This document shows, in pieces, positions 8,612 to 64,000 of a DNA stretch of 64,000 nucleotides. This stretch comes from Candidatus Latescibacterota bacterium (GTDB lineage: Bacteria > Latescibacterota > UBA2968). The stretch spans positions 384,001 to 448,000 of the forward strand of contig OZ242311.1 in the NCBI GenBank assembly GCA_965207885.1, in the 5' to 3' direction. The translations under genes were made by a program, and so were the position numbers. How positions within the stretch are numbered: position 1 is the stretch's first letter; every line of letters starts with the position of its first letter. Under the pieces are notes generated by a model. The model ran no database searches, had not been told where the DNA came from, and saw only the letters and a list, made by a program, of their open reading frames with translations.

Positions 8612-8614
8612 GGG

Positions 8615-11017
8615 CTATTCATATCGCAATGCTGTGGCTGGGTCGGTCAAGGCTGCGCGAATCGCCTGCGTACTCACGGTCATGATCGCGATTGCCATTG
8701 TCAGTAATCCGCTCAATACAAAGACCAGCGCGCCCAGATCTATGCGATACGCAAACCCCGCCAACCATTCATTCATGACCCAATAGGCCAGCGGAAATGC
8801 GATTAGATTGGCCAGCAGTACCAGAATCACAACTTCCCGCGAGAGCAAGCGTACGATATTGGGTACGGATGCGCCCAGGGTCTTGCGGATGCCAATTTCT
8901 TTGGTGCGCTGCTCTGCTGTAAATGCCGCCAGGCCAAATAAGCCCAGGCACGCTATTATAATCGCCAGCCCGGCGAATACAGTTATAAGTGTTCCTATCC
9001 GTTGTTCGGCGAGATAAAAATTCGCTAAATTTTCGTCTAAAAATCGGTAATAAAACGGCTTTTCGGGAATATATTTTCGCCACATTTCTCCGATATATTT
9101 AAGGGTTTCATCAATATTCTCACCGCGAATTTTTAGTGTTAGCACGTTGAATTTGGGTTGCCACATCGCAATCGCCACGGGGCGGATGATTTCGTGTAGT
9201 GACCGGTTGTGAAAATCTTTTACCACGCCGATTACAACGCCTTTTTCCCGGTTGTGCGCAGCCCATCCAAATTCCTTTCCAAGCGGCTCGGTCCACCCCA
9301 ATCGCTTCACGGCAGTTTCGTTCAGGATAAATGCCTGAGACGTATCGGTTGTCACTGATAGTGAAAAATTGCGGCCCGCTGTGAGTTCCAGATTATAGGT
9401 GTCTAAAAAGGCTTCATCCACGCCCAGGACGCGCATCCGCCAGTCTTCCCCTCCCCTGCCCTCGGGAAATACCCTGTCCAGTTGTCCTCCATATCCCATC
9501 GAAGAATGCGATGCCGATGCTTTCAAGATGTTTGGGTGTTTCAAATATTCATTTTTGATATTCAAATAATCATCTGTCAAGCGTCGATCTGTAGAAAATA
9601 GCCAGGTTAGAACTATGAGATCTTTATCAAATCCCAGATTTTTGTTCTGTACATAATTCAACTGTTGATACACCGTGTATGTGCCCGCGATTAAAAATGT
9701 CGAGATCGCAAATTGAAATACCACGAGGATCTGTCGCAGCCGGCCGCTTCTAGTACTCGAGACAAGCGTGCCTTTCAGTACTGTTACGGGCCGAAAACTG
9801 GATAGAAATAGCGCGGGATATCCTCCGGAGAGCAGGCTTACCAGCACGGTTAAAACAAATAGTCCGGCAATCGCGTACCACAGGGTCTGTCCTTCGAGCG
9901 CGATAGTTTTTTGGGCAAAGTTATTCAGGAGGGGTAGTGAAATTTTCACCAGAATTAGCGACAATAACCCGGCCAACAGTGCGGTCAAAAACGTCTCTCC
10001 CAAAAACTGTCGGATCAATTGGGCGCGATAGGCTCCCACTACTTTTCGCAATCCGACTTCGCGTGCCCGTCGCGCAGAGCGCGCTGTCGATAGGTTCATA
10101 AAATTGATGCACGCAATCAGCAAGATAAATAGCCCGATGATGGCAAACAGGTACACATACGTGATGTCGCTATGAGATGAGATGCCATAATCCACTTTGG
10201 AATACAGATAGATTCGCTCTAAGGGTTGCAAAAAATAGGTGCTCTTTTTGACGATCTCGTCGCCCATATATCGCGCCATGAATTCAGGCAATTTTGCTTC
10301 GAGTGCTTTAACATCTGCGCCTTCTCGCAATAAGATGTAATTGTGTGCCGGTCGCCAGGTTGAATCCACGGCCCACGTTTCAAATACGTTCCGCGTCCAA
10401 TAGGTGTTCACGGTTGCACATACAATGTCAAATTGCATGGTTGATTGTCGAGGCACGTTTTTCAGTACTCCCGTAATCGTATATACCCCGCCCATATACC
10501 GATCATCGACGGTAAGCACTTTTCCTATTGGGTCGTCATCCCCAAAAAATCGCTGCGCGGTTGCTTCTGTCACCAGGATGGAAAGCGGTTCTTTGAGTAC
10601 TGTCGCGCGATCTCCCTTCACCAGTTCAAAATCGAAGACTTCCAAAAAATCGGGGTCCGTCAAACAGAATCGCTGATCAAATTTGCGGTCTTTATAAGTG
10701 GTCCAGATATAATTCCACGACAGATATCGCACGACTGTTTCGATTTCTGAATAGTCTTTTTTTAGCGCGGGTCCCGCTGCTCCCGATGTGCCAAAACCCA
10801 TGTCGCGGGTGCCGTCATCGTTGCGCATCTCGCGGATCAATTTGTAGATTCGATCGCTCTTTTTGTGAAACCGATCTACGCGAAATTCATCGTGAATAAA
10901 TAATCCGATGAGGACACAACAAGCCACGCCTACCGATAATCCCAGTACATTGATCAGCGAGTATCCTTTGTGGCGCATCAAATTTCGCAGGGCGATTTTC
11001 AGATAGTTTTGGAACAT
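8615..11017 (-). CDS. MacB/FtsX-type ABC transporter permease (800 aa)
   Basis: NYLKIALRNL, IACINFMNLSTAR, REVGLRKVVGA, QRTKEIGIRKTLGAS, ALRYE end. Confidence 0.95.
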   Translation of the reverse strand: MFQNYLKIALRNLMRHKGYSLINVLGLSVGVACCVLIGLFIHDEFRVDRFHKKSDRIYKLIREMRNDDGTRDMGFGTSGAAGPALKKDYSEIETVVRYLSWNYIWTTYKDRKFDQRFCLTDPDFLEVFDFELVKGDRATVLKEPLSILVTEATAQRFFGDDDPIGKVLTVDDRYMGGVYTITGVLKNVPRQSTMQFDIVCATVNTYWTRNVFETWAVDSTWRPAHNYILLREGADVKALEAKLPEFMARYMGDEIVKKSTYFLQPLERIYLYSKVDYGISSHSDITYVYLFAIIGLFILLIACINFMNLSTARSARRAREVGLRKVVGAYRAQLIRQFLGETFLTALLAGLLSLILVKISLPLLNNFAQKTIALEGQTLWYAIAGLFVLTVLVSLLSGGYPALFLSSFRPVTVLKGTLVSSTRSGRLRQILVVFQFAISTFLIAGTYTVYQQLNYVQNKNLGFDKDLIVLTWLFSTDRRLTDDYLNIKNEYLKHPNILKASASHSSMGYGGQLDRVFPEGRGGEDWRMRVLGVDEAFLDTYNLELTAGRNFSLSVTTDTSQAFILNETAVKRLGWTEPLGKEFGWAAHNREKGVVIGVVKDFHNRSLHEIIRPVAIAMWQPKFNVLTLKIRGENIDETLKYIGEMWRKYIPEKPFYYRFLDENLANFYLAEQRIGTLITVFAGLAIIIACLGLFGLAAFTAEQRTKEIGIRKTLGASVPNIVRLLSREVVILVLLANLIAFPLAYWVMNEWLAGFAYRIDLGALVFVLSGLLTMAIAIMTVSTQAIRAALTDPATALRYE

Positions 11018-49692: not shown

Positions 49693-50061
49693 CTACTTGG
49701 TCGCTAAACTCTGGCTTTGCAAACCTGGTACGTTTTGAAGTTCGGCGTCATTTGTCACCAGAACGGCCTGATGACAAATAGCGGTGGCGGCAATAATTGC
49801 ATCCGGTAACTTGAGTCCCGATTCTCGTCGCAAGCGAATAGCTTCTTTCTTTATATCTTGGTCTATACCGTAAATAGCCAATTTGGCAAGTGTGTCACGG
49901 ATTAAGGTTTCTTCTGTTGAAGTTAATTTCGAAAAAGAAAGTAATTCTATTTCAGTAATTATTGAACATATAATTTCGCCACGAGGCAACAAGTCTGCCA
50001 GACGGTCATTGAAGCGCAGAATGAAAATGTTGGTATCTATCACAAAACGTTCAGAGTTCAT
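49693..50061 (-). CDS. vapC: VapC (PIN domain) toxin
   Basis: FVIDTNIFI, ITEIEL, LKLPDAIIAATA, LVTND; ATGA overlap with the antitoxin. Confidence 0.92.
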   Translation of the reverse strand: MNSERFVIDTNIFILRFNDRLADLLPRGEIICSIITEIELLSFSKLTSTEETLIRDTLAKLAIYGIDQDIKKEAIRLRRESGLKLPDAIIAATAICHQAVLVTNDAELQNVPGLQSQSLATK

Positions 50062-50303
50062 TTCTCCCAACCCCGATCCCATTCAGCCCGAAGCTTTCGC
50101 TGAAACGCCACCGGGTCATCAATGTCTCGAAACGCTTGAATTTTGCCATCAAGATCCGATAGGACATCTGCACCTTCTGTTTTTCTTTGTTCGTCTTCCT
50201 GCAGGTAAACGGCAACACGAGCCTTTCGACCAAATGCCTCGCGAAAGTCAGTAGGAAGTTTGCCGTCTTTGGCAATGACGATTTCTTTTTCAATCAATTT
50301 CAT
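50058..50303 (-). CDS. Cognate VapB-type antitoxin
   Basis: Small ORF directly upstream of vapC; DPVAFQRKLRAEW tail typical of PIN antitoxins. Confidence 0.8.
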   Translation of the reverse strand: MKLIEKEIVIAKDGKLPTDFREAFGRKARVAVYLQEDEQRKTEGADVLSDLDGKIQAFRDIDDPVAFQRKLRAEWDRGWEK

Positions 50304-50383
50304 GGTCTTTGTCCTTTCCTCATGCAATAAATGTACTGAATCACGCGAAATCGCGCCACCCTGTACATCTATATAGGCAGACT

Positions 50384-53300
50384 TCAAGCGGCACTTTCGT
50401 AATATGGCGATGGTAATTTGGGATAGGCGCGGTAGATGTGGCGGAATACGTCTTCGGTTTTTGTTTTTATGTCCTTTTCCGTGTATTTGTGAGGCAGGCC
50501 AGTTTCGTCGCTGAAGAGAAAGTCATAGATGGATGTCCGTACGGCGTCTCGGGTCGCTTCTTTTTCACACCATTGGTGGACGCGCAGATTGCTGGCTTTT
50601 AGTTTTTTTAAGAGACTGACGGCCACTTTTTTTATTTGTGTGATTTCGTTTGCGTTCAGATTGGGTTTTTTCAAGAGGTCGAAAATGGCAAGGGATTCTT
50701 CGTCGAGGCCCTCGCGAACAGCCCGGGTCTCTTCTTCATCCAATGCCTGCACCAGTTTGAGTAATGCCTCGAAGGTGCGCTCTATTGTTATCTGGTCTTT
50801 TTCGCGGTTGTACGCTGCTACGATTGCTTCGTAGTGGTGCTGGAAGTCCGTGCGTAATGGGTTTTGCTGCAGTAGGCGTTGCAATTTTTGTTCTACTGCT
50901 TGTCTGAGGTTTTGGACGGTGGTGTTTTTTTCCCGGATACGCACGAATTCTCGCTTCAGACGCTCGAAGTCTATCTGGCTGATGTCGTAAAGGCGCCGAT
51001 CTTCATCAGGATGCGGATTTGCAGGTACATCACTGACTGTGGGTTCAATGGCCGCATCTACTATCCGCTGTAATTCCATTAGAATGTCTGAGATGTCGGC
51101 CTGATTGCGGTCTTGCTGGAGGCTTTTGTACACGATGTCAATGGCGTCGCGGTCTTTGCGATATGTGTGGATGTTCTGGACGTTGACACAGGCTTTGTAT
51201 TTTTTGAATACTTCGCGGCACATGACTTCGAAGCGTTTGCGGGTTTCGTCGTTTTCGTTGACGGCTTCTTTGCAGGCTACGATCGCTGCGTTGCGCTGGA
51301 AGCCCGTTTTTTCAATGATGTCGTCCAGTGGTGCGTTGCGTTTGTCGAGGAAGTCTCGCACCAGGGCGATGGCTTCGGCGAGGTCTGATAGGAGTTCTTC
51401 GTCGGGTTTTGCGGGGTCGGTCGGTGTGCTATCTCCATCCGTTTGCGTGCCAGCGAAGGTTGCGAGTGCCTGGCGCAGGTGGACGAGGACGCCGCAGTAA
51501 TCTACGATCAGGCCGTTGTTTTTGTTTTCGTTTACGCGGTTGGCGCGGGCAATGGCCTGCATGAGGGTGTGGGCTTTGAGTGGTTTGTCGAGGTAGAGCG
51601 TTGATAGGCACGGGACATCGAAACCCGTTAGCCACATGGCGCAGACAATGGCGATGCGGAATGGGTGTTCCTCATCTTTGAAGGCTTCGTCCAAGTCCAT
51701 GCGTTGCTTGTTGCGGTACTGCGGCTTGTTCCTCATGGACTCGGGCAAGTCCATGCCTTCTTTGATGAGCCTGCGGTGCTGGATGATGTCCAGTTCCCAT
51801 TTGTTGAATTTTTCGATTTCGCCCTGTTCTTCGCTGATTACGACTGCTGCGCGGGTCTCGCGCATCCATTCGATCTTCTGATGCAGGTATGTTTTCTCTT
51901 CTTCATCCGTTGTCCGCGATAGCCTTGTTTCCAATTTTTGGATGTGTTCGTGCCAGTAGAACTCAATCAATTTGTGCATTCGCACACAGGTTATTTTGTC
52001 GATGCAGACCAGCATGGCTTTGCCGGTTTCCCAGGCGGTTGAGTAGTGTCGCGTGAAGTCCCGCGCCAGTTGGTCGAGCCGTTTGCCCGCGGTGATGATG
52101 TGGTAGGCGCGTTTGAGTTCTCGTTCGAGGTGCTGTTCCTCGTCGATGTCGCTGATTTCGGCCTCTTCCAATTTTTCGGCGATTTTTTCGTTCAGATCAT
52201 CAATTGCTACGCCGAGTTTGTCGCCGCGCGCGTCGTAGTAGAGGGGGAGCGTGGCGTTGTCTTCTACTGCACGCTGGAAGTCGTAGGTGGAGACGTAGTC
52301 GCCGAAGACGCGGCGTGTGATCTGGTCGTCTTTGAACAGGGGTGTGCCCGTGAAGCCCATGTAGGATGCGTTGGGCAGGGCGGCGCGCATGTTGGCTGCT
52401 AATTCGCCGTATTGGGTGCGGTGCGCTTCGTCGGTGATGACGATGATGTCGTCGCGCTGGGTGTAGCCTTTTTTGGGATCTATGTCCTCCTGGTTGAATT
52501 TCTGGATGAGGGAGAAGATGTGCGATTTGTGTTCTGTCAATAGCTGGTTCAGGTGTGGCCCGTCTGTTGCGCGACAAGGGTCTCGGTCGTTTACAACGCC
52601 GCAGCCAGCGAAGGTTTTGTAGATTTGCGTGTCCAAGTCTGTGCGGTCGGTGAGGATGAGGAAGGTGAAGTTGCCACCGAGTTTGCGGTGTACTTTGCGG
52701 GTGAAGAGTACCATGGAGTAGCTTTTGCCTGCTCCCTGTGTGTGCCAGAAGACGCCGAGTTTGCCCTGGCGTGCTTTGCGGTCGCGCACGGCATCAATGG
52801 CGCGGTTCACGCCGAGGAACTGGTGGTTGCGGGCGAGGATTTTCTTTGTTTCGCCGGATGTTTCGTCAAAGAGGATGAAGTTTTCTATGATGTCCATGAA
52901 GTCGCGTTTGTTGCAGACGCCCTTGAGGAGGGTTTCCATATCGACGACGCCGGGTTCTTCTTCGGACAGGCGTTTCCATTCGTGGAAGTGATCCCACTCG
53001 CTGGTGATAGAGCCGAGTTTTGCTTTTTCGCCGTTGCCAAACATGACGATGGCGTTGTGGTGGAAGATGTGGGGGATGGTGTCGTGGTAGTCCGAGTAGT
53101 TGCCGTTGTACGCGGCTTTGAGATCTCGGTGGATGTTTTTGCATTCGATGAAGAGGAGGGGCAGGCCGTTGACGAAGCCGATGATGTCTGCCCGTCTGCG
53201 GTAGAGGTCGCCCTTTATCCACAATTCGCGCACGCAGAGGAAGTGGTTGTTTTCGGGGGTTTCAAAATCGAAGATTCGGAGGCGTTCCCGCGTCTGCTCG

Positions 53301-53638
53301 CCGTTGGCGTTGCGGAATGTGACGGGTACGCCGTTGCGGATGAAATCGTACTTTTCGCGGTTGGTGGCGACGATGCTCTGCGAAGCAGTGGTGGATGTGA
53401 TTTTCCGGATTGCGTCGTTGTAGGCGTCTTCGGGTAGGCCGGGATTAAGAGTTCGCAGTGCGGTGAGCAGATAGCGTGTGAGCACTACTTCGCGGTCGGA
53501 GGTGCGACCAAGCAGGCTATCCTGTCCGAAGTCCTCGCTGTTATAGGCATAGACAGATTCCCAGCCGAGTTGCTGTTCGAGATACTCGGCTGTGGTCTGC
53601 TGAACGAGGGTGTCTTCAGTGTAAGGGGTTGGGTTCAT
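50384..53638 (-). CDS. hsdR: Type I restriction enzyme R subunit
   Basis: RRADIIGFVNGLPLLFIECK nuclease motif, WHTQGAGKS, DEAH, FTGTP, MWLTGFD.P, QAIARANR. Confidence 0.97.
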   Translation of the reverse strand: MNPTPYTEDTLVQQTTAEYLEQQLGWESVYAYNSEDFGQDSLLGRTSDREVVLTRYLLTALRTLNPGLPEDAYNDAIRKITSTTASQSIVATNREKYDFIRNGVPVTFRNANGEQTRERLRIFDFETPENNHFLCVRELWIKGDLYRRRADIIGFVNGLPLLFIECKNIHRDLKAAYNGNYSDYHDTIPHIFHHNAIVMFGNGEKAKLGSITSEWDHFHEWKRLSEEEPGVVDMETLLKGVCNKRDFMDIIENFILFDETSGETKKILARNHQFLGVNRAIDAVRDRKARQGKLGVFWHTQGAGKSYSMVLFTRKVHRKLGGNFTFLILTDRTDLDTQIYKTFAGCGVVNDRDPCRATDGPHLNQLLTEHKSHIFSLIQKFNQEDIDPKKGYTQRDDIIVITDEAHRTQYGELAANMRAALPNASYMGFTGTPLFKDDQITRRVFGDYVSTYDFQRAVEDNATLPLYYDARGDKLGVAIDDLNEKIAEKLEEAEISDIDEEQHLERELKRAYHIITAGKRLDQLARDFTRHYSTAWETGKAMLVCIDKITCVRMHKLIEFYWHEHIQKLETRLSRTTDEEEKTYLHQKIEWMRETRAAVVISEEQGEIEKFNKWELDIIQHRRLIKEGMDLPESMRNKPQYRNKQRMDLDEAFKDEEHPFRIAIVCAMWLTGFDVPCLSTLYLDKPLKAHTLMQAIARANRVNENKNNGLIVDYCGVLVHLRQALATFAGTQTDGDSTPTDPAKPDEELLSDLAEAIALVRDFLDKRNAPLDDIIEKTGFQRNAAIVACKEAVNENDETRKRFEVMCREVFKKYKACVNVQNIHTYRKDRDAIDIVYKSLQQDRNQADISDILMELQRIVDAAIEPTVSDVPANPHPDEDRRLYDISQIDFERLKREFVRIREKNTTVQNLRQAVEQKLQRLLQQNPLRTDFQHHYEAIVAAYNREKDQITIERTFEALLKLVQALDEEETRAVREGLDEESLAIFDLLKKPNLNANEITQIKKVAVSLLKKLKASNLRVHQWCEKEATRDAVRTSIYDFLFSDETGLPHKYTEKDIKTKTEDVFRHIYRAYPKLPSPYYESAA

Positions 53639-55395
53639 TTGGGTGGTCGATCAAAATAAAAACCCAACAGACTTTTAGAGGGATCTTCGTCGGTGAGGGT
53701 CAGCCGAACATGCTTATCGAAGTTAAAGCCATCGCTAAAGTCATCTCGCGGAACCATATCGGAATTTAGAGTACAAATGTACTGTACATTATTTGCACTT
53801 GATACCTTGCTCGCATGCTCAAATGCAAGTGCTCGTTGCCTGGAGTCAACACCGTCATAAAGACCACTGTCATGAATCAAGAAATTGAGTCTATCATTCT
53901 GTTTTGACATGATTTGTAATAGCATCAAATCGAAGCAGAAAATTTTCATCTTCTCAATGCCTTCGCTACCACTTTTGTCTATCTCGACATCGTACTTGAA
54001 CCCTGTTTCATCAATATTAATCACCAAGCGCCCGGGTGCCTCGTAAAGTGCCTGAGAGTTGTCGTTGAAAAGACGGAGTGGAAGGCTCCAAATATCTCTA
54101 CGTTCTTCGTGATCTTGCTCGGCAATCTTAGTCAATTCAGCCTTCGCTATATTTATATTGCGTTTCCGCGTGGTTCTATCCTTTATTTCTTCAAGCCAAG
54201 TAAGTTTCTGTTCTAAATTGCTGCGTATTTCAATGATGCGTTCCTGGAGTTTAGCCAGTTCTTGCAGTGCTCCGTGCGTTTCAAGAATTCTAAGCAAATC
54301 AGCCCTCTCATCAGTTAGTCGTCTAATTTCATCGTTTTGGACCCTGATTTTACGTTCTATGCGCCTGATTTCCGTTTCGAGAAAGACTCGCCTATTCTCG
54401 ATAATTTTCGAATGAAACTCTTTGGCTTCGGTAAGAGTACGACGAACCGAGTCAGAAAAAATCACACCAGTTTCTTCGTAGATATTGTCAATGGCTGTGT
54501 CAGAAGGGGGTGTCTCTGCTTCTACTGACTCTCTGTACCGAGACAAACGTCTTTGATCGACAATGTTCTTGTTGGTCAAATTGTGAATGGTTTCAGTGAT
54601 CTTATCAGCTTCGTTCTGAATTGTTTCGTACTGTGGGTGTACTTTGAATCCTTCTAAAGCATCTGATTCACGTTTGAGTTGACTTTCCAATTGAACGCAT
54701 TCCGCCTCTAACTCGCCAACTGAACCCCTTGCGCCTTCCATAGCACCGGACCTAATCGCTTCATCAATTGCCTTAATGCCCTTTTCTTGATCTTTCAATT
54801 CTTGCCATTTAGACGCATTCTCCCAGTTCATTTCAAGCAAAAGCGCGATGTGAAGTTGCCTGTCCCATGTCGCTTGGTGACGGGTATGACTGAATGGATC
54901 TATGTAAGCGGCGGTGCCGCGTCTTATGAAATATGAGATCAGACTACGGAAAGAAGGCCTGTGCCTGGTGGCATAGTCAGAGTGCAAGCCAAATAAAGCC
55001 CACCCCAAGAGTGCCCGCCAGCGGTCTAATTTGAACCTACCTCCTCTGAGGAGATCGAAACTATCAGGTTGTTCAATCCAACCAGTTGTCGGGCCTTCTA
55101 TATATAGCCAGTTCGGACTTTCAATAGCGCGGGTCACTTTCACACGGTTACCCTCAAGTGTAATTTCCAATGTAAATTCCCAATCTTGCAATGGATCTAT
55201 AGAGAGGCCCTGCCCCTTGCGAACGTTGGAGCCCAAACAAAAGTCAATAATGTCAATTAGAGTAGATTTACCCAGACCGTTTCGCGTGTCCTTTTGAGTA
55301 GATTCCTCAGTGCGGTCTGCTAAAATGACATTCAGTCCCGATGCAAATTCCACTGTATGAAATGAAGATTGGTTAGCAGTAATTCGATGAATCAT
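53635..55395 (-). CDS. lmuB: SMC-like ABC ATPase (DUF2326) of an ABC-3C/Lamassu system
   Basis: Walker A RNGLGKST, coiled coil, signature-like SGSEG, FLIHDS..DGVD, YICTLN. Confidence 0.88.
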   Translation of the reverse strand: MIHRITANQSSFHTVEFASGLNVILADRTEESTQKDTRNGLGKSTLIDIIDFCLGSNVRKGQGLSIDPLQDWEFTLEITLEGNRVKVTRAIESPNWLYIEGPTTGWIEQPDSFDLLRGGRFKLDRWRALLGWALFGLHSDYATRHRPSFRSLISYFIRRGTAAYIDPFSHTRHQATWDRQLHIALLLEMNWENASKWQELKDQEKGIKAIDEAIRSGAMEGARGSVGELEAECVQLESQLKRESDALEGFKVHPQYETIQNEADKITETIHNLTNKNIVDQRRLSRYRESVEAETPPSDTAIDNIYEETGVIFSDSVRRTLTEAKEFHSKIIENRRVFLETEIRRIERKIRVQNDEIRRLTDERADLLRILETHGALQELAKLQERIIEIRSNLEQKLTWLEEIKDRTTRKRNINIAKAELTKIAEQDHEERRDIWSLPLRLFNDNSQALYEAPGRLVINIDETGFKYDVEIDKSGSEGIEKMKIFCFDLMLLQIMSKQNDRLNFLIHDSGLYDGVDSRQRALAFEHASKVSSANNVQYICTLNSDMVPRDDFSDGFNFDKHVRLTLTDEDPSKSLLGFYFDRPPK

Positions 55396-55619
55396 TGCTT
55401 CACCCTCACAATCAGACTGTTTTCTAGACTTATAGCACCGACGATGTGAAGCATGTCAAGTGCCAGCACAAACCGTTCAAAGGTGCCTATCGCGTCTTCC
55501 TCTCGAACGGTCTCCCACAGGCTGGTCACCGTCTGTGGTTGGTCAATCTCTTTGAGCAGGATGGCACCAACACCGATTAGAGCCTGGTCTTGGGAAATAT
55601 GCTTTGACGGAAGGATCAT
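55392..55619 (-). CDS. lmuC: ABC-3C middle component (Lamassu small subunit)
   Basis: 75 aa, MILPSKH...GA.LL...TV..LW...F..ALD.L..G; 4-nt overlaps with both neighbours. Confidence 0.82.
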   Translation of the reverse strand: MILPSKHISQDQALIGVGAILLKEIDQPQTVTSLWETVREEDAIGTFERFVLALDMLHIVGAISLENSLIVRVKQ

Positions 55620-56377
55620 CTCTCAAACACCTCGCAGGTCTCAAACAGGTAAACCAGTACCGCTAATCCGGCGGACCGCTTGGCTTGCTCCACGAAGCCT
55701 CGCTGTGCAAATCTACACATTAAATCGAAAAGAACGTCTCCCGAATGCCCGTCTTGCCTCAACCGATAGTACTCTTGTAGAAATCCCACCTTCAAGCGTT
55801 CTGGAAAATCTTGATCCGTCTGCGCCACACTTTCAATAAACGCTCGCACCTCACGCGAAATACTGAGGCCCATTGTAATGATCATTCGAGAGCCGTTTCC
55901 CAATGCGTTTTTATTTATTTTATTTTCAGGCGCGATCACCGAAAAGTCATTGTCAGGGGCAGTCTGTTGTAGATTAATTTGCATGATCCACAGGGTGGCT
56001 TCTTCCAATTCTGGGAATCCAATATCTACGAATGCATCGGCTATTGCATCACGGACCGTTTGTTCGTGTTCACTCTTGATCTTGTGGAGGCGTTCTACGG
56101 GATAGTCGTTCTCACCTTGCGGCATCGCGTCAATTATGGTGTGGCAGGTTCCGCACAGATAGATGAGATTGTTATAATGGTCTCTATTCTTAGGGGGCAT
56201 ATTTTTATCATAACGAGCTGATCCAGGATTTTTACCAGCGATATGTGCTGCTTCTCCTACGTTGATAGGATCACCGCTTTCACTGTCTGGTGACAAATTC
56301 TGTCCACAACCGGGCAAAGCACATATGTCTCCACTTCGGTAGGCCAAGAGGATTTTAGTTCGGTTGGATACGCTCAC
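55616..56377 (-). CDS. lmuA: Lamassu effector: HNH endonuclease + ABC-3C C-terminal domain
   Basis: CALPGC...GEAAHI...NLIYLCGTCH..ID HNH motif; KINKNAL and AVLVYLFETCEVFER C-terminal domain. Confidence 0.85.
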   Translation of the reverse strand: MSVSNRTKILLAYRSGDICALPGCGQNLSPDSESGDPINVGEAAHIAGKNPGSARYDKNMPPKNRDHYNNLIYLCGTCHTIIDAMPQGENDYPVERLHKIKSEHEQTVRDAIADAFVDIGFPELEEATLWIMQINLQQTAPDNDFSVIAPENKINKNALGNGSRMIITMGLSISREVRAFIESVAQTDQDFPERLKVGFLQEYYRLRQDGHSGDVLFDLMCRFAQRGFVEQAKRSAGLAVLVYLFETCEVFER

Positions 56378-56559
56378 ACCGCCACCTCCCCATTCATCAA
56401 CTGCAGTAGGAGCACGTCGCGGGTCTGGGTGAGTTGTTCATTCGACTGATGGAGTTTCTCAATTTGAAGAACAATCGGAATGATCTGCTCCATAAATATA
56501 TCAGCGGTCCTGTCATATACCTGCAAAAACGTAACTCCCTGAAAGTCTAATTGCGACAA
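56374..56559 (-). pseudogene. hsdS: Orphan 3' fragment of an hsdS gene (conserved C-terminal helix)
   Basis: QIEKL...LTQTRDVLLLQLMNGEVAV* is homologous to LTQARDLLLPRLMSGEMAV* at 63775-63840; no upstream TRD. Confidence 0.8.
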
Positions 56560-56688
56560 AAAATAGCTCCTGAACCTAAAGAACTAATTTTTTAGAGGAT
56601 AAAAAAGGAAATTCTGTTGGCCTGCGAGTGACCGAATGGCTGCGTTCATCAAGTGTGGACAAGAGACAGTGCGGACCATAGTTTGCCC

Positions 56689-59600
56689 TTAAATTTGGTA
56701 AGCGGAATCACTCCGACGGCGCGGGATAGATTGTAGCTGTGGCTCGCTCCCGCCGAGATTTGCCAACCGTCGGGCACTTTCTCGTTCAATCAGTTTTTGG
56801 TTCCGAAGCATTCTCATTTTCGCGTCATGTTCGGCAACATTTACTTCCGCTTCTCGATCATATCCCTCTGCTAATTTTCGGAGTGTAACAGCAAAGCGGT
56901 GATAGCCTGCATTTTCAACGTCTTCGGCTTTTTGTCTGTATTTTTCGGCAAGCTCTTGTTCTGGTTTTCCCGTTGGGTCAACTGTGTGAACCCCGCGAGA
57001 GTTGTACATTCCAGAACGGAAACTATTCCTCATTTCTTCTTCATCCGTCGCATTGAGCGCAGAGGCGACTGTTCGGTGTATCCACAACCCTTCTGGATCA
57101 GGTGGCGCATGAATGAGAACATTTCCTATATGCATAAGAGCGGCCTCAAGATGTCCGGATTCATTACACGCTTCTTTTGTTTTCTTAAGCCACTTCTCGA
57201 ATTGGTCAGGTAAAAATTGACCATCTGATTGCTTACCCGGCGGAGTTTTCCATTTATCAAGGAGTTCGTATGCGTTATCAGCAATGGCTTTATCCTGTTC
57301 GCTAAGTTCTTTTGGAGATTTCATTTCATTTTTTGATCGATAGATAAGGCGTATTAGTTCGCAGAAAAAATCCGGGTCAGAAGATAGGCGATTTTCTAAT
57401 GATTTCGGTGATGTATCAGCATAATAAGGTTCATTCAGCAATTTCAGGTAGGCCCATTCAATTTGAAAAAGAGCATCAGGATCGGTGTCTGGGTCGTCCT
57501 GTAAAGCCTTTATGATTTCGATGATGCTATGCAGATCCACCACATGTGAAGGTTCTTTAGAAGAAATCGCAGCCATGAGAGCTTTTACACTTCGGGTTTT
57601 GTCCAATGGCTGTTTACTGTGTATCATTTTATGCAGACAGGCGATAGCCGCATGGGGTCTGTCATACTCTATCAGTTTGTCTATGGCAATGCTGAGGTCG
57701 CCATCAGTGTGATCTTGGTATGGGTTTGCACTGGTTTTGTTCCAGTACCCCTTTTCGGACTCGCCCAGCCAATCTGTTGCGCGATGCCAGGTCTCCTTTG
57801 TAAAGGGTAGATAGGATAGGAACTGACCTGTTTGTGCTGCTGACCAGTTTGAGGTGTTAAAGCTATCAACCCATTCCCATCCATTGACATTTTGGCGACA
57901 ACTGACATAAGCACTTGTAAGCAGCGCGAGTTTGGTGTTATCTGTTTCCAGCAATGCAGGAAGGATGTGTTTGTCAGTTTCCTCCTGTGCTATAGTACCC
58001 AGAGAACGTCCAACAAACCAGGGTGCCTCAACACTTTCGGCGAATTGAAATACCATATCCATCCCACCATCAGCCAGAATCTCTTTTATCGCTTGCTGAC
58101 GGCGTTGATCGAGTTTTTGGCGGTGTTGATCAAGTTTTTCCTTTTGCTGTGGGTCTCCCCAGGTTCCTTCATAGAGAGCCAAATCATTGTGACCAAATAA
58201 TCTGCGATGAAGATGAAATGGATTTTGAGGCGCGAGTTTTGCGGCAACATCCTCGATTTTGGAAAGGATTTTATCGCTTAAAGCCCATTCTGCGTCAGAA
58301 AAGCGTCTGTGTTTTGAGGCAAGCTTAGTTAGTTGAGACCAGATTTTTAGACGCTGATCTTCAGATTTGCCGCATATCTCTTCTGATGATAGATACTCGA
58401 GCAATTTGTCAAAAGAAGGCTTTGGTAAGTTATCAAGATCACCAATCAACTCGGTTAATTTATCAATATCATTGCTTGCCATCGAAACCGCTATTTCAGC
58501 ATAAGAGGTAATTTGCTTCCAGTACTCCTCTTGAATAACACGATCTTCCCAATCATCGGGAATGGTATTTCGCCACGCAGGTTTGTGAGTGCCGGAGGAC
58601 ATCTGATGCTGATTTGGCAACAGATTGATCAATAGGTTCCATGCCACATCTGGGACTGTATTTATCAGCGTTTTTACAGCAACTTCGCGCTTCTCTATGG
58701 GTGCAATAGTCTGCGGATGCCACGGGAGTATAATTTCTGTCAGCGAATTGGCTGGGCGGTTCGCCCAATTCCCACCGGGATCATGTTCCGCAAGATCACC
58801 GAGAATTACGCACACTCGGACGAGATACTCAGCATCCCAGGCAAGGGTTTCCAATGCCCAGAGTAGGCCAACGAGGTAATTTCTACCCCCCACACCTCCG
58901 CGTTCCTGTGAAAACAATTCGTCAAATGGGCAAGGAGATTGGTCCAACGCATTTTCTACCGCGTTCAAAAAATCATTTGGGGCTGCTTCTGCCAGCACAG
59001 GGAGAAGATCATTTAGACTACCCCACAATACCCAATCAGCATTCTTAAGAATTTCGCGAACAACACGACTGGCTGTGTCTTTTGGCTTCCAACCTTGATG
59101 TTGTGGCGAAAAGTTCTTCAAAGCATCGGGATTAGTGCTGAGAAGTGCCAGCGTTTCAGCTAATCCTTTCCGAAGACCGTTTGAGTATTTTGGTACCTTG
59201 TCGTAAATATTGGCGGCATAGCGTTCATCAGCAGGTAAGTCAAACTGAGGATTGCGCTCGGACAATACTGTAACCGCACACTGTTTCAGGACTTTCAGCG
59301 TGTCATCAAAAACACGTCCGCCTAATGCCTGCCACATTCCTTTTCGATCAATGACTTGCCATCTCCCGTTTATAAACGTCACAGGGCTTATGGCTTGTTG
59401 TAACATCTCCCTCAGTTTGGGAATCCATTTTGTGTAATCCTCTTCATTGACAAGCTGACGCACAATTTCTAGATCGGCTTCGTTTAGCTCATTCCACGCG
59501 CCAAGAAGGTTGGCAATCGCCAGGTCAGAAGCGTATTCGTGCTGATTCCAGTCTGAATGGGTTTGTTGTTCGTCAGAAGACTGCAATCGAATTGTCTCAA

Positions 59601-60033
59601 TTTCTCGCAAACTGAGCGCGCCGAGGGACTCGCCATTGCGTCCATACCAATGTCCTTTCCAGGCAGTTGGAATGCCTTGCATGGCGGGCGGAATTTTGAA
59701 CATGACAACGCGGCCACCTGGGTGATTGAGCACATAGATTTCATCGAATGTGAGGTTATCAGTTTCATTGGCAATTTCCTGTTTCAAGCTGTCAAGGTGC
59801 GCTGGATTTTCGCGGAACTGACTGCCGCAAACCGAATGATCATTTTTTACACCGAATATCAACCAACCACACGCTTGCTTTTTCAAGTTGGCTTCGTTGG
59901 ATAGCGCAGAGAAATACTTGCCCAACTTCTCGAAGTCATACTGATTTTGAGCTTCTTTGAACTCGAGCCATTCTGTCTCGTGCGGAAGTTCACACAGACG
60001 GTCGAGTTCCTGACGAAGTTCAGATTGGTTCAT
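56689..60033 (-). CDS. Schlafen/AlbA_2 domain fused to a ~900-aa helical domain with a VapB-like C-terminal tail
   Basis: ETEWLEFKE, YFSALSNEAN, GWLIFGV at the N-terminus; likely ATG at 60033 after GGGAGA; terminal LIERESARRLANLGGSEPQL. Confidence 0.8.
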   Translation of the reverse strand: MNQSELRQELDRLCELPHETEWLEFKEAQNQYDFEKLGKYFSALSNEANLKKQACGWLIFGVKNDHSVCGSQFRENPAHLDSLKQEIANETDNLTFDEIYVLNHPGGRVVMFKIPPAMQGIPTAWKGHWYGRNGESLGALSLREIETIRLQSSDEQQTHSDWNQHEYASDLAIANLLGAWNELNEADLEIVRQLVNEEDYTKWIPKLREMLQQAISPVTFINGRWQVIDRKGMWQALGGRVFDDTLKVLKQCAVTVLSERNPQFDLPADERYAANIYDKVPKYSNGLRKGLAETLALLSTNPDALKNFSPQHQGWKPKDTASRVVREILKNADWVLWGSLNDLLPVLAEAAPNDFLNAVENALDQSPCPFDELFSQERGGVGGRNYLVGLLWALETLAWDAEYLVRVCVILGDLAEHDPGGNWANRPANSLTEIILPWHPQTIAPIEKREVAVKTLINTVPDVAWNLLINLLPNQHQMSSGTHKPAWRNTIPDDWEDRVIQEEYWKQITSYAEIAVSMASNDIDKLTELIGDLDNLPKPSFDKLLEYLSSEEICGKSEDQRLKIWSQLTKLASKHRRFSDAEWALSDKILSKIEDVAAKLAPQNPFHLHRRLFGHNDLALYEGTWGDPQQKEKLDQHRQKLDQRRQQAIKEILADGGMDMVFQFAESVEAPWFVGRSLGTIAQEETDKHILPALLETDNTKLALLTSAYVSCRQNVNGWEWVDSFNTSNWSAAQTGQFLSYLPFTKETWHRATDWLGESEKGYWNKTSANPYQDHTDGDLSIAIDKLIEYDRPHAAIACLHKMIHSKQPLDKTRSVKALMAAISSKEPSHVVDLHSIIEIIKALQDDPDTDPDALFQIEWAYLKLLNEPYYADTSPKSLENRLSSDPDFFCELIRLIYRSKNEMKSPKELSEQDKAIADNAYELLDKWKTPPGKQSDGQFLPDQFEKWLKKTKEACNESGHLEAALMHIGNVLIHAPPDPEGLWIHRTVASALNATDEEEMRNSFRSGMYNSRGVHTVDPTGKPEQELAEKYRQKAEDVENAGYHRFAVTLRKLAEGYDREAEVNVAEHDAKMRMLRNQKLIERESARRLANLGGSEPQLQSIPRRRSDSAYQI

Positions 60034-60190
60034 ACTGAAATCTCCCATTCTGATTCTACCATAAGATTGGGTATGCATCAGACAGGCGGCAGTTTCGAAT
60101 ATATTACTTCAAATTTTCCACCGTGTTCTTGTTGCAACTTCGCTTCTTTTATATTTTGGTCTCTTGGCAATGTTTCCGCACAGTCCAAAC

Positions 60191-61147
60191 TTAGACAGAG
60201 ACCCGGTCAAATGCCTCTGTAAAAGTAATGCTCCCATTCTGCATTTCACGTCTGATGTTAAGAATATCTGATGGAGTCGGCAGGCCATCAATTTGCAATT
60301 TGCAAGAAATATTAAGACGTTCAAAAAGAGAGTTGATTTCCTTGACGATATGATCTCTTAATACAGCCAGTGCCCAGTGAAAATTAACCAATCTATGGAA
60401 AACGAAAAACTCTGTTGATCGTTTTTCGGACAAATCTCTTCGATTCCACCCCCATTTTTTGGTAACTTGTCCGCAGTATATATCAGCCATTCTTACATAC
60501 TCTTGAAAATCAAAATTACTGTCTTGCAAGCCTTTTGCTAAATCTTGACTCCAAAAATTTGGAGGCAAACTTTCATATTGTCCCAGGTTCTTTATCATAG
60601 CTTTATATCCCTTTCGTCCACCTAACATCGGGGGCATCTCGAAGTACCAAATGCGCTTTGATGGGACCAAGACAAAGTTCTTTTCCCACAGGTCTCGGTC
60701 CCTTTTGGGAACCAGTTGCAGAAAGTAGCCGGGAAGACGTAATAATCTTCTTGATGTGAAACCATAGAGATGGGCAATATTGTTGTCATCAAATATTATT
60801 TCGTGTACTGAGCATCCTTCATGGGAAAGGTGTCTTACTATATTTTCAATAACATCACAGACTACTCTATTTAGATCATGTCGTCTGATTAGATCATGTT
60901 GGTCATTCGGATTATATCCATATTGCATTTCTCTAATAAGTTGTCTTGCCTTTTCACACTCCCTCTCATCTCCATCCATGCTAACAGAAAACGCTTTCTG
61001 TTTCGTTGTATGACCTCCAATTGGCATTATTGCCAAATATATATCTTCGGTGAACATATGTATGTTCAGGTTGTTATCTGTTTCGTTTGAAAGGCTGGGA
61101 AAATGTCTGGCGACTGTCGGCTGTACTATGTCGTGATACCCCATCAT
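60191..61147 (-). CDS. Hypothetical protein (318 aa)
   Basis: ORF with ATGA overlap to the upstream 845-aa gene; no recognisable motif. Confidence 0.8.
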   Translation of the reverse strand: MMGYHDIVQPTVARHFPSLSNETDNNLNIHMFTEDIYLAIMPIGGHTTKQKAFSVSMDGDERECEKARQLIREMQYGYNPNDQHDLIRRHDLNRVVCDVIENIVRHLSHEGCSVHEIIFDDNNIAHLYGFTSRRLLRLPGYFLQLVPKRDRDLWEKNFVLVPSKRIWYFEMPPMLGGRKGYKAMIKNLGQYESLPPNFWSQDLAKGLQDSNFDFQEYVRMADIYCGQVTKKWGWNRRDLSEKRSTEFFVFHRLVNFHWALAVLRDHIVKEINSLFERLNISCKLQIDGLPTPSDILNIRREMQNGSITFTEAFDRVSV

Positions 61148-63681
61148 TCTTCACCTCCATCATTACGAAGAATGTCTTGATATCTTCGTTTCGCCCTTTG
61201 CAAAGCATTGGGGAAATGCTGTCGGTTACGTCCAAAATCTAAACTTTCTCCATCCTCGCAATTCCGCAGATAGAAGTTGATGAAGACGTCAATTCCGTCA
61301 TAACGACTTAGATGACGTTCACCGACAAATATGCGGACTAATACATCTTCATGATCAATTTCTATATCCGACGTTATTGCTTCAATTCCATCAACCTCAC
61401 GGCGAGGAACATTCCTTAACACATTCATTATTTTTTGTTTCCAACTGGTGCGTAGAACTGAACGATGTGGTATTATTCCAAATGCACTTTCTGTAAAGGC
61501 AACTGCTCCAGCCAATAGAGGTAATGGCGATTGCTCACGTTCTCGGTTTAAGTATTTGTCCCAGGCCTGTGTCACTGTCTCCCATAACAACACATTTTCA
61601 TGGTAATCAGCCATCAATTTTGCATACCCGCTGATATCTATAAGATCCAATAATGGTGCCGCAGCTATCTTAAAATCCTGTTGAGCATGCCAATCTGTAA
61701 TTGATGTTGTTGGTTTGAGTTTATCAAACTTCAATAGAGCACCATGTAAATACGGTTTAAAGACATTTTTTAGTAAGGCGGTGTCATTCTTTAATAGAGC
61801 ATCAAATGCAACTTCGCCTGAAGTGTGAAGAAACTGCCCTGCATAATCTGGATAATTCTCCGGACGGTTAATAAGAGCAAGTAATATATTTTGTTTTGAC
61901 ATCTGTGACAGCAATTCATTTTGTCTGGCATCGCTCTTGGAACGTAGTTCTTCAAGGTCTAACTGGGACCAGGGCAAACCATCTATGTATCGCTCACTGG
62001 TCAGTTCATCCCAGACCTTCGGCCAGATATTATTGAGTTGATCGCTTACCTTATGCCAGTACTCCCACTCCCGACTCATTATGGCCGCTGCCAGCCATGG
62101 TCGACTACAGTCAGTTGCTTTTTTAATACTGGTTTTAAATAAATCTGCACTTTTGATAATCAATGTCTCGGCACTGGCAACAAATTGCTTTGCCTCTACT
62201 TGGCGCACAAGCTCTGTAAGATACCAAAGAGGTGAAACTACATGTCCTTCTACTGTTTTTTCAAACACGAGCCGCGGTTTCAACCACTCAACTCGTGAAA
62301 GACAATGTTTTGAAAATCCCTGACGGTAGATACTGGCCTCTTTGGTCCAGCGTACTGAGGAGACCATGTTTTTTATAGTCTGAGAGCTAATACTCTCCAT
62401 AGTTTCTCGGTAGGTCAAAGCTACAGATATAGTAAGAGCAGATAATCGTTCTACCAGTCCTAATTTCTCCAGAGTTCCTTGTAAATTGCTATCGGTTTGT
62501 TTAGTGAATTGGTCTAAAACTGTTTCCATCAAATTCTCTACCAAAACAAAGGCTCTATCCACGCTCCCTTCACGCGCAAGTTTTTTTATGTAAACCCCTG
62601 TATAATCAAATAGACCAAATAGATCGGTATAACGTCCGTTCACTAAATTGACCTCAATACATCTCTTGACAATTGGAATGCACCTTTCCTCAATCCATTC
62701 ATTATTGGTTGTTATTTCTGGCTGAATCATTGTGCTTGTCTGGTGAGCAAGGTCCACAGCCGTATCGCCTGTTCGATACCAGTCTCGGTGTTGGTATTGC
62801 TGCTGATACCAAACACTTTCAGTAGGTATTTTACGTTTCGCATCTTCATAAACAATTAAAAACTTCAGAACATTTTTGGATAATTCTATGAAAGGTTTGC
62901 CATTTAAATGTGGCTCTTTCGATGTGATGTCTGACAGTGTTTTAAGTGTGTCCAGTGTTGCTGAAGCCTTTTTGTGGGCATGATTTTGGAATGATTGATC
63001 CTGCCATCTGAATCCGCCTATAACTACCATGCTCAGCCAGCGATGAAGCTCCTTAAAGAGATGATGTGATAGCGCAGTGGGGTCAAAAAAATAGAAAGCC
63101 CGTTGCCCAAGTTTCACGAATGAAATAATCCCTATTCCTGCCAATATTGTTACCAGTGGTATCGCGAAATGCACTTTGGGAAATCCCATTTCACGGAAGG
63201 CAATTAAGATCAAGCCGAGAAATGTCAAAAAGGCGAGAAAGCCCATATAGACATTTCCAAATCTCTCATGTGCCAACAGATCTCTAATATTATTTGGTAC
63301 TCTCGCATATGTGGTGCTACCCACCATGCTAAGACCTGCATAATACAGACCGATGAAAACTCCTCCAATACCGCTGATCGTTGCCAACAACGTCACATAA
63401 TCACTATCGTCGGGAATTGCAATACCAATGCTCCCATAGTATGAGTATAAATAGGAGTCAATCGTTTGAATCAGTGCAGCAATCACAATACAGATTAATA
63501 GCAGCGCCCAGGTGATCCTGAAGAGGTGTCTAAATGATTGGTAATTAGCTCTCTCTTCATTAAGCCTGTATCGAACACTATATATACGTGCGCCCAACCA
63601 AAAAAAAATATTTCTCAGGATACTACGTAGTAACCAAAAGCCCCGTGATTGATATAGTTGTAAAAGGAATCTGTTCTTCAT
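61144..63681 (-). CDS. Hypothetical membrane protein (845 aa; N-terminal TM bundle, large soluble domain)
   Basis: About 4-5 hydrophobic helices in the first ~200 aa; AT-rich; no recognisable catalytic motif. Confidence 0.85.
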   Translation of the reverse strand: MKNRFLLQLYQSRGFWLLRSILRNIFFWLGARIYSVRYRLNEERANYQSFRHLFRITWALLLICIVIAALIQTIDSYLYSYYGSIGIAIPDDSDYVTLLATISGIGGVFIGLYYAGLSMVGSTTYARVPNNIRDLLAHERFGNVYMGFLAFLTFLGLILIAFREMGFPKVHFAIPLVTILAGIGIISFVKLGQRAFYFFDPTALSHHLFKELHRWLSMVVIGGFRWQDQSFQNHAHKKASATLDTLKTLSDITSKEPHLNGKPFIELSKNVLKFLIVYEDAKRKIPTESVWYQQQYQHRDWYRTGDTAVDLAHQTSTMIQPEITTNNEWIEERCIPIVKRCIEVNLVNGRYTDLFGLFDYTGVYIKKLAREGSVDRAFVLVENLMETVLDQFTKQTDSNLQGTLEKLGLVERLSALTISVALTYRETMESISSQTIKNMVSSVRWTKEASIYRQGFSKHCLSRVEWLKPRLVFEKTVEGHVVSPLWYLTELVRQVEAKQFVASAETLIIKSADLFKTSIKKATDCSRPWLAAAIMSREWEYWHKVSDQLNNIWPKVWDELTSERYIDGLPWSQLDLEELRSKSDARQNELLSQMSKQNILLALINRPENYPDYAGQFLHTSGEVAFDALLKNDTALLKNVFKPYLHGALLKFDKLKPTTSITDWHAQQDFKIAAAPLLDLIDISGYAKLMADYHENVLLWETVTQAWDKYLNREREQSPLPLLAGAVAFTESAFGIIPHRSVLRTSWKQKIMNVLRNVPRREVDGIEAITSDIEIDHEDVLVRIFVGERHLSRYDGIDVFINFYLRNCEDGESLDFGRNRQHFPNALQRAKRRYQDILRNDGGEE

Positions 63682-63774: not shown

Positions 63775-64000
63775 TCAAACCGCCATCTCCCCACTCATCA
63801 ACCGCGGCAGAAGCAGGTCTCGGGCTTGGGTGAGTCTGCGTATTTCGGTAGAAAGTATGTCAATTTGTCGAAGGATCGGCGATATAATGCCTGTAAACTT
63901 GTCAATTAAACTGGTTTCAGGAACTACAAAAGGAATGAGCTTAAAGGTGTTTCGGATAATCGCATCGAAGATTGCGCCAACTGCTCGACTGCGAAATTGT
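63775..64000 (-). CDS. hsdS: Type I R-M specificity subunit, 3' end (truncated by the window)
   Basis: Manual translation: ...AVGAIFDAIIRNTFKLIPFVVPETSLIDKFTGIISPILRQIDIL...LTQARDLLLPRLMSGEMAV*. Confidence 0.9.
   Translation of the reverse strand, partial: QFRSRAVGAIFDAIIRNTFKLIPFVVPETSLIDKFTGIISPILRQIDILSTEIRRLTQARDLLLPRLMSGEMAV

Follow-up and report, generated by a model that had tools for sequence, protein, structure and literature searches.

PrrC/EcoprrI and RloC are anticodon nucleases embedded in type I restriction operons, and DSR2 combines a SIR2 head with a HEAT-like C-terminal sensor. PrrC and RloC have been discussed among the ABC-ATPase defence proteins (bioRxiv 10.1101/2024.01.29.577857), and PD-lambda-4, which equals Avs8, has been presented as a STAND (signal transduction ATPase with numerous domains) protein (bioRxiv 10.64898/2026.01.04.697583). 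The characterised bacterial Schlafen CbCash is described as having the catalytic triad E17/D22/K24, in an E-x4-D-x-K arrangement (Weickert et al., 2026, PMC13462974); the words "toxin-antitoxin" and "PIN" are absent from the main text of that paper. In Mycobacterium tuberculosis, VapB52 is reported as a 43-kDa antitoxin of several domains, of which the C-terminal one occludes VapC52, and as cleaving itself on single-stranded DNA (NAR 2026, PMC13273310). Here we describe a gene that brings together elements of these systems. It lies in a 64,000-nucleotide (nt) stretch of a Candidatus Latescibacterota genome (GenBank assembly GCA_965207885.1, contig OZ242311.1, positions 384,001 to 448,000), hereafter the window, and its product has three parts: a Schlafen/AlbA_2 head, a Trp-rich all-helical body and a VapB-like C-terminal segment. 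The literature that we consulted on Schlafen proteins, VapB/VapC, PIN domains and type I restriction-modification holds no description of such a tail fusion or of the body family.

The gene is best explained, and probably so, as encoding a single-chain immune protein of the abortive-infection type, housed in the variable part of a type I restriction operon, whose lineage acquired the role of antitoxin to a VapC toxin that this copy has since lost. The coding sequence occupies positions 56689 to 60033 (1114 amino acids, aa) and, like every window feature given below, lies on the minus strand. Counted from its first ATG, an in-frame codon upstream at 60078, the open reading frame (ORF) would run over 56689-60078 and 1129 aa, but the true start is most likely 60033, since homologues begin at MNQSELRQ. 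Residue numbers follow the 1114-aa form except in the tail query described below. A preliminary description of the locus had proposed a Schlafen-like head, a helical body and a VapB-like tail, and Pfam, structural modelling and sequence search have borne out the three parts in turn; it had also placed the protein's end at ...PRRRS, whereas the real end is ...AEHDAKMRMLRNQKLIERESARRLANLGGSEPQLQSIPRRRSDSAYQI (...PRRRSDSAYQI). The whole protein gave zero matches in NCBIfam and PADLOC. A scan of 56300-61300 for promoters and terminators returned counts no higher than those from shuffled sequence.

The tail carries the clearest signature of its origin. A 12-aa linker, DAKMRMLRNQKL (aa 1070-1081, 56791-56826), kept in 45 of 58 tail-bearing homologues and missing in 13, leads into the VapB-derived segment IERESARRLANLGGSEPQLQSIPRRRSDS (aa 1082-1110, 56704-56790), which corresponds to about residues 36-64 of a 65-aa VapB. 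With the last 50 residues as query (aa 1080-1129 in the numbering from the first ATG), a search of 5.8e9 proteins, restricted to those of 30-619 aa, gave 106 candidates, of which 100 had E<=10. PF09957 (DUF2191) VapB antitoxins account for ninety of these; they are mostly of 60-68 aa, with a few longer ORF calls of up to 109, share 66-93% identity (mostly 75-93%) with the tail over about 30 residues at E values of 9.6e-8 to 1.1e-3 and have the form MRTTLNIDD...ALIERESARRLAxLGGSEPQLxxxPRRRSDPx. The other matches were nine fragments of the large-gene family itself and one 62-aa protein without a Pfam hit. As these alignments read, the likeness is far beyond chance, and the tail, which the preliminary description had named as the C-terminus of a VapB/DUF2191-type antitoxin, can be assigned accordingly. 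The likeness shows only in direct sequence search: the 51-aa tail alone matched no family at E<=10 in Pfam or NCBIfam. It spans residues 33-65 of the 65-aa VapB P0136, and the N-terminal half of VapB aligns weakly with the solved M. tuberculosis VapB11 (6a7v) and VapB15 (4chg), so the tail is the toxin-facing half that lies outside the ribbon-helix-helix (RHH) fold. The N-terminal RHH half of VapB, which serves DNA binding and dimerisation (MRTTLNIDD...), is not in the window protein. Since the protein has no RHH half and its tail no Pfam or NCBIfam hit, it is not a VapB family member and carries a VapB fragment only.

Free-standing 65-aa VapBs are followed by a PIN-domain VapC (MILVDTSVW..., mostly of about 120 aa and mostly overlapping by 4 nt) in 44 of the 54 loci that could be scored by simple motif rules; 80 such loci had been fetched and 26 were dropped. 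Behind the large gene a VapC of this same family follows with an ATGA overlap in five of eight tail-bearing loci and in none of 72 tail-less ones. In the Latescibacterota relative L082 (the same place as L089) the order is hsdS, the large gene, a 129-aa PIN gene with ATGA overlap, a HipA_C-like kinase gene, a HIRAN protein gene and hsdR. The VapC of L082 is 46-65% identical to the VapCs of free-standing VapBs and to the copies of the second subclade, with D5, E46, D94 and D113 invariant, and it ends in ...NLAYQI*.

In the window this toxin gene is gone. DNA alignments with L082 and L089 show that the window is without L089 positions 8318-8694, 377 nt that comprise nearly all of vapC. Its last four codons and stop (AYQI*, 56689-56703) remain, in frame with the tail across a deletion junction at 56705|56704, and the stretch at 56644-56688 is homologous to the sequence after vapC in relatives (L089 8695-8755 against window 56704-56644, 78.7% identity). 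The tail thus runs into VapC's own AYQI end with vapC deleted, and is an orphan. This deletion is shared by the closest relative, L088 (83% identical), and by the metagenomic protein fragment P0124, which ends in ...PAYQI; a second, independent loss is seen in L086 and L087, which keep a vapC stub of 26 codons only. Neither a free VapB of the tail's type nor a cognate VapC (best E 0.35) was found in the window genome. Just past the vapC deletion site, L088 carries a DDE transposase gene (8493-9857; DDE_Tnp_1_4, E 4e-150), and there is no such element there in the window.

That the fusion or the deletion is an artefact of assembly can hardly be credited. The assembly is indeed of the metagenome type (one contig, 97% complete, 5% contamination), but the fusion recurs in nine genomes and 58 protein clusters, the deletion recurs in L088 and P0124, and an independently built Logan contig, from a run that is possibly the source of the window DNA, crosses the junction with 0 differences. 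A relative of about 93% identity from another sample has a contig that leaves the window match exactly at 56703, into the 5' end of vapC, and that also skips 56790-56827, the 12-aa linker. This relative (runs X5 and X6, compared with window 56300-60200) occurs in a sample labelled sponge metagenome, and an 8.3-kb contig covering the gene was also assembled from a metatranscriptome (RNA-seq) library; because DNA can occur in such libraries, the contig is not evidence of transcription.

A PIN gene does stand near the large gene, and the preliminary description had put it forward, at 49693-50061, as the tail's partner. This proposal did not survive: the gene (49693-50082, 129 aa, directly after hsdR; Pfam PIN, E 3.6e-15) could not be aligned with the cognate VapC by BLASTP, and with a small ORF just upstream of it (MKLIEKEIVIAKDGKL..., without a family hit) it forms a separate vapBC-like pair (49693-50387), unrelated to the tail's partner. 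The other suggestion made there, that the tail is a scar of insertion into a vapBC locus, holds in that the tail now appears to be a relic in the window, and fails in that the relic arose by deletion of vapC and not by insertion into the nearby pair. We also considered that the orphan tail still works in the window genome, either by binding a different PIN toxin in trans or by serving as a degron or docking peptide. In the two genomes with the shared vapC deletion it is intact and as well conserved as the remainder of the gene; yet with no cognate VapC in the genome, an unrelated local PIN gene and too few substitutions to show selection, a working tail seems quite improbable.

A structural model bears on what the tail does where its toxin is present. 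Residues 1058-1107 of the L089 protein (P0009) were modelled together with that protein's own VapC, and the pair reached an ipSAE (interaction prediction score from aligned errors) of 0.85 as the median of three runs, against 0.07 for the best control; the ipSAE mark applied is reached by 58 of 80 solved complexes and by 2 of 110 mismatched pairs. At least 80% of contacts are common to the runs, and the partner's predicted local distance difference test score (pLDDT) is at least 77. On P0009 the contacts are made by the VapB-derived residues 1078-1100 and 1102, including one Arg of PRRR, and on VapC they include residues 6, 46-47, 91 and 93-94, beside the acidic active site. The model supports binding of the tail to VapC at its active site in relatives.

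Among proteins of 620-1976 aa a search with the tail gave 62 candidates and 55 hits, and every hit belongs to the large-gene family. Of the 120 best homologues 58 carry it: 55 with the strict ExxxxEFK motif, P0043 (Schlafen, with LELK), one N-truncated protein and one with a TIR head. In a quick FastTree phylogeny of the body, rooted at the midpoint and computed from 109 sequences no shorter than 1000 aa, all tail-bearers fall in one clade. Because the tail hits are all family members and the tail-bearers form one clade, the tail appears to have arisen once, in one clade of one Latescibacterota genus. Among species-representative genomes the tail is found in 8 of the best 80 loci, all from Latescibacterota; within the window genus a full-length tail-bearing gene is present in 9 of 21 genomes, five with vapC and four without, and other genera of the phylum have ordinary pairs of vapB (65 aa) and vapC. 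Inside the tail clade there are secondary losses (P0069 and P0056, truncated at ...IERESAQ, and P0070 and P0072) and head swaps (TIR, FSTGGGG). The possibility that homologues end near ...GYDREAE without the tail, raised at the outset, is thus realised in most of the family, and a monophyletic clade, the 58 of the 120 best hits, keeps it.

This distribution can also be read as that of a selfish addiction or stabilisation module, or of an accident in which a deletion fused a neighbouring vapB to the large gene and was then fixed. The tail and vapC of the relatives would have no part in immune signalling, and the tail would do no more than keep VapC harmless. Two independent deletions have removed vapC in four of nine genomes and left the large gene intact, tail-truncated and tail-less members nest within the tail clade, and more than 95% of the family does without tail or VapC (the body nearly always reaches the C-terminus in the best 150 profile hits). 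Furthermore, neighbouring cassettes are freely exchanged, HipA-like plus HIRAN genes against PDC-M68, a setting in which addiction would pay. On the other hand the fusion is old and maintained, with two subclades in which tail and VapC have co-diverged (VapC 60-65% identical between them), the ATGA overlap is kept in five of five intact loci, and a multidomain sensing antitoxin of a VapC is already documented in VapB52. We take this account to be a serious possibility that falls short of probable.

The head occupies aa 1-155 (59569-60033) and matches Pfam SLFN_AlbA_2 (PF04326) at E 2.9e-12, its 47.6 bits exceeding the cutoff of 25.3; this is the sole Pfam domain found in the protein. The motifs named in the preliminary description, ETEWLEFKE, SALSN and GWLIFGV, are all present in this N-terminal part. 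Its putative catalytic residues are E19 (59977-59979), E24 (59962-59964) and K26 (59956-59958); the E19-x4-E24-x-K26 motif is intact, with the same spacing as the CbCash triad, and E19, E24, F25 and K26 are invariant across 13 aligned heads, some just 23% identical to that of the window. Folded alone, the head reached a pLDDT of 86.1, and the top Foldseek matches of this model in the PDB were SLFN12, SLFN11, SLFN13, SLFN5, SLFN14, DIP2311 (3lmm) and the tRNase domain of SAMD9, at E values of about 1e-5, probability 1.00 and TMq 0.34-0.61, the last figure belonging to 3lmm, a bacterial AlbA_2 protein. A search of solved structures with the head sequence gave only a chance-level helicase match (E 0.35). 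From these likenesses we infer that the head is a Schlafen-type RNase that would cleave tRNA or other RNA. In two loci, L093 (7769-9184) and L150 (7816-9210), a second AlbA_2 protein (AlbA_2 + HATPase_c_4) is encoded directly downstream of a family member with a head other than Schlafen, and that of L093 also carries Fic-like_C.

The body (aa 160-1062, 56848-59556) is, from its conservation, Trp content and model, a conserved Trp-rich alpha-solenoid and a presumed sensor or regulator, without a Pfam family. It holds 30 Trp (3.3%), and neither a strict nor a loose pattern for Walker A matched in it, in agreement with the preliminary description of a Trp-rich region of about 900 aa without Walker motifs. 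The AlphaFold2 model of the whole protein (pLDDT 75.1, predicted template modelling score 0.65) shows an all-helical solenoid over about 160-1060; a long helix at 1045-1092 contains IERESARRLAN and is followed by a disordered end. By sequence, the family profile had 0 matches among solved structures at E<=1, and the ESM Atlas, searched with the body, returned only clusters of "hypothetical protein" at a score of 0.87, under the level of a lead.

Relatives of this body are numerous. The whole-protein search found 2495 proteins at E<=0.001 among 8000 candidates scored, and the family profile, run against 1.84 billion cluster representatives, matched 7095 at E<=1e-3; tightening the threshold to E<=1e-10 left 5554, and E<=1e-30 left 3554. 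Among the best 150 of these hits, the match to the body almost always runs to the protein's C-terminus. Whatever the head, identity in the body is 56-89% over the aligned family set, and the heads include Schlafen/AlbA_2, TIR (P0076), SIR2 of the prokaryotic Argonaute (pAgo) type (P0123, P0232), an endonuclease of the CBASS (cyclic-oligonucleotide-based antiphage signalling system) type (P0273) and helix-turn-helix (HTH; L196), with two further heads without a Pfam match, one marked by FSTGGGG and one of about 600 aa. In species-representative genomes, searched with an alignment as query (a single-protein query gave one locus), relatives are encoded at 416 of 455 pattern matches and come from archaea as well as from many bacterial phyla; a Methanoperedens relative is 61% identical. 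Among 72,556 plasmid records 79 hold a family member, and in IMG/VR only one locus was found. The body family is thus, by these counts, large, and it has no Pfam or PADLOC model. Several genomes of the window genus (G083, G084, G072 and G080) hold two solenoid-family paralogues each, about 44% or 26% identical to the window protein, of about 1260-1340 aa and with other heads; some have one in-frame TGA.

In relatives of the window gene the large gene begins 4 nt inside the hsdS stop. For the wider family, the best 80 of the 416 loci were fetched, and the full-length gene was recognised by simple motif rules in 70 of them (10 were dropped). HsdS is encoded directly upstream in 14 of these 70 loci and HsdR directly downstream in 3; other neighbours are further restriction-modification genes, reverse transcriptase, HEPN, RhuM, transposases and housekeeping genes, and no partner gene conserved across the family was found among the 70. 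On a Shewanella plasmid the family gene stands beside Abi and Sie genes. A rival reading is that the protein is no immune effector but binds nucleic acid and regulates the type I restriction enzyme or serves as its scaffold, with AlbA_2 as a domain that binds and does not cut. Relatives with HTH heads are annotated as transcriptional regulators, AlbA_2 is also found in the AlbA_2 + HATPase_c_4 proteins adjoining some loci, the gene overlaps hsdS by 4 nt in relatives, and several mammalian Schlafens are noted as being without catalytic residues (PMC13462974, introduction). However, the E-x4-E-x-K motif is invariant in the head alignment, sister proteins bear TIR, SIR2 and endonuclease heads, which are cell-killing effectors and not regulators, and most loci have no hsd genes near them, so that we consider a purely regulatory role rather unlikely.

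In the explanation we favour, the HEAT/ARM-like solenoid of about 900 aa would act as a sensor or regulator controlling the N-terminal Schlafen-type RNase head, and when such a cue comes from a phage, translation would be stopped through cleavage of tRNA or other RNA by the head. The lineage of this copy would additionally have become the antitoxin of a VapC PIN toxin: the toxin-occluding C-terminal half of a 65-aa RHH VapB would have been grafted onto the end of the body without the DNA-binding half, with vapC translationally coupled behind the large gene by the 4-nt overlap. In intact relatives the tail would keep VapC inactive, and sensing, sensor damage or sensor loss would free VapC as a second RNase. 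We favour this dead-man's switch; a plain addiction role stabilising the cassette is nearly as likely. In the window and in L088 the 377-nt deletion then removed vapC and joined the tail to VapC's last four codons, and, with vapC deleted, the tail would be a toxin-less relic and only the sensor-Schlafen part could act. The preliminary description had already combined a sensor body, a Schlafen RNase and a captured toxin-binding peptide, which fits the swapping of heads, the downstream vapC of relatives and the complex model; the function it assigned to them is, here too, something we infer. More tentatively, one solenoid sensor in intact relatives may command a Schlafen RNase in cis and a PIN toxin in trans through a grafted VapB peptide of about 30 residues, and the body family may be a major unnamed class of NTPase-free pattern-recognition proteins, often in type I restriction operons; as a whole this broader proposal is doubtful.

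Several observations weigh against the explanation of the gene as a sensor-controlled RNase and former antitoxin. The RNase activity, the sensing and the immunity in it are all putative. In the whole-protein model the head has low confidence (pLDDT 40-70). Foldseek and VIA-align with the whole protein matched only generic HEAT/ARM/TOG repeat proteins, at query-normalised template modelling scores of 0.05-0.16 and Z<=8.3, which falls below the level meaningful for helical repeats; the body therefore has no specific structural relative in these searches, and its role as a sensor rests on analogy. The annotation of HTH-headed relatives as regulators implies that heads are not always killing effectors, and only about a fifth of the sampled loci adjoin hsdS. 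Two losses of vapC among nine genomes, together with truncation of the tail itself in some clade members, suggest that VapC can be done without, and this agrees with addiction no less well than with a second effector. VapBC complexes have already been solved, so the pass of the complex model may show likeness rather than binding by this copy. Moreover, the orphan tail has decayed no faster than the rest of the gene: between the window and L088 its 33 codons show 3 synonymous differences and 5 non-synonymous ones, compared with 146 and 170 over 1064 codons of the remainder. Eight differing codons are too few to decide, but they allow for a continuing role of the tail.

The restriction operon around the gene hosts other cassettes. 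Its hsdR lies at 50384-53638 (TIGR00348, E 6.4e-150), and the 3' end of the operon's hsdS at 63775-64000, matched at 63778-63927 in a tblastn search with the HsdS of L089. Between hsdR and the large gene is a three-gene ABC-3C system (53635-56377), recognised with Pfam and PADLOC as the PADLOC candidate PDC-M68 (an HNH_2+CTD10 effector, MC6 and a DUF2326 ABC ATPase; A 1.5e-90, B 1e-209), and the same cassette is found in L085 and L088. Next to it, a 61-aa ORF (56374-56559) is a fragment from the C-terminus of a type I HsdS (PADLOC Specificity_I, E 2.5e-8; 45% identity by tblastn to aa 293-350 of the L089 HsdS), and its stop overlaps the GTG start of the PDC-M68 cassette, marking the cassette boundary. 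It looks as though cassettes move together with hsdS 3' ends, where recombination stacks them. In L084, L086, L087 and L089 (about 8500-10450) a HipA_C-like kinase gene followed by a HIRAN-domain gene replaces PDC-M68, between vapC or its stub and hsdR; this pair may be another toxin-type cassette. On the other side, between hsdS and the Schlafen gene, are two genes (60191-63681) for proteins of 845 aa and 318 aa, without a Pfam, NCBIfam or PADLOC hit. They overlap by 4 nt, and L086 has the same pair in the same place (87% and 82% identical). The ESM Atlas places the 845-aa protein in clusters of "hypothetical protein" at 0.97-0.99. The pair is a candidate for a new restriction-embedded system.

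If the proposed mechanism is true, an immune receptor doubles as an antitoxin and works as a guard or dead-man's switch, and its triggering, proteolysis, inhibition or loss would free VapC. It would also offer a concrete way for an immune protein to gain a toxin, by taking the toxin-binding peptide of an antitoxin and dropping the DNA-binding half, and would show that the link can be lost again through clean deletion of the toxin gene. The body family, with its swappable heads, would be a good target for finding new phage sensors, and work on bacterial Schlafen nucleases, a field opened only recently, gains a member that can be tested. For the window alone the message is more modest, namely that the tail is probably a relic and the nearby PIN gene not its partner. 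The interest lies chiefly in the family and in the idea of a receptor as antitoxin, of which the window copy would be a degenerate, toxin-less form.

Compared with the systems named at the outset, the protein resembles each in part. As with PrrC and RloC, the gene for a latent RNase stands between hsdS and hsdR, and in both cases the RNase can be pictured as backing up restriction. Unlike them, the window protein is without an ABC ATPase, having no Walker A, and without a HEPN nuclease, and most family members stand outside hsd operons. A PrrC-like anticodon nuclease was accordingly ruled out as an identity for the gene, given the lack of Walker A and of any such Pfam or PADLOC hit; only the operon position is alike. 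With DSR2 and the Avs/STAND proteins, Avs8 included, the family shares the logic of a variable killing head (SIR2, TIR or nuclease) on a conserved helical-repeat sensor, but the window family has no NTPase module. DSR2 was not among the fold matches of the whole-protein search, which is weak for single domains, and the window protein has no PADLOC hit for it. PD-Lambda-4_A/Avs8 was likewise set aside, with no PADLOC hit for the window protein and no Walker A; four relatives gave marginal, roughly collinear matches (E 0.00017-0.009).

The VapBC modules with DUF2191/PF09957 RHH antitoxins are closest in the tail, whose peptide is 66-93% identical to theirs and behind which, in relatives, a PIN gene overlaps the stop by 4 nt. 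VapB52, as its report sketches it, is likewise a large multidomain protein whose C-terminus occludes VapC. The window protein differs from both in having no RHH half, in that the carrier is a Schlafen-solenoid protein of 1100 aa and not a peptidase-HTH protein, and in that its toxin gene has been deleted. Schlafens of the CbCash type (PMC13462974) share an N-terminal Schlafen/AlbA_2 domain with E-x4-[DE]-x-K, a regulatory C-terminal part and a link to restriction-modification with the window protein, and cleavage of tRNA would be the output expected of it as well. In contrast to CbCash, the regulatory part of the window protein is a 900-aa solenoid without a nucleotide-binding domain and not Csx15, and the window clade also carries the VapB peptide and a vapC partner. 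To judge by its sequence, the window system is made of known kinds newly combined: a Schlafen head, an unnamed solenoid body and a VapB tail.

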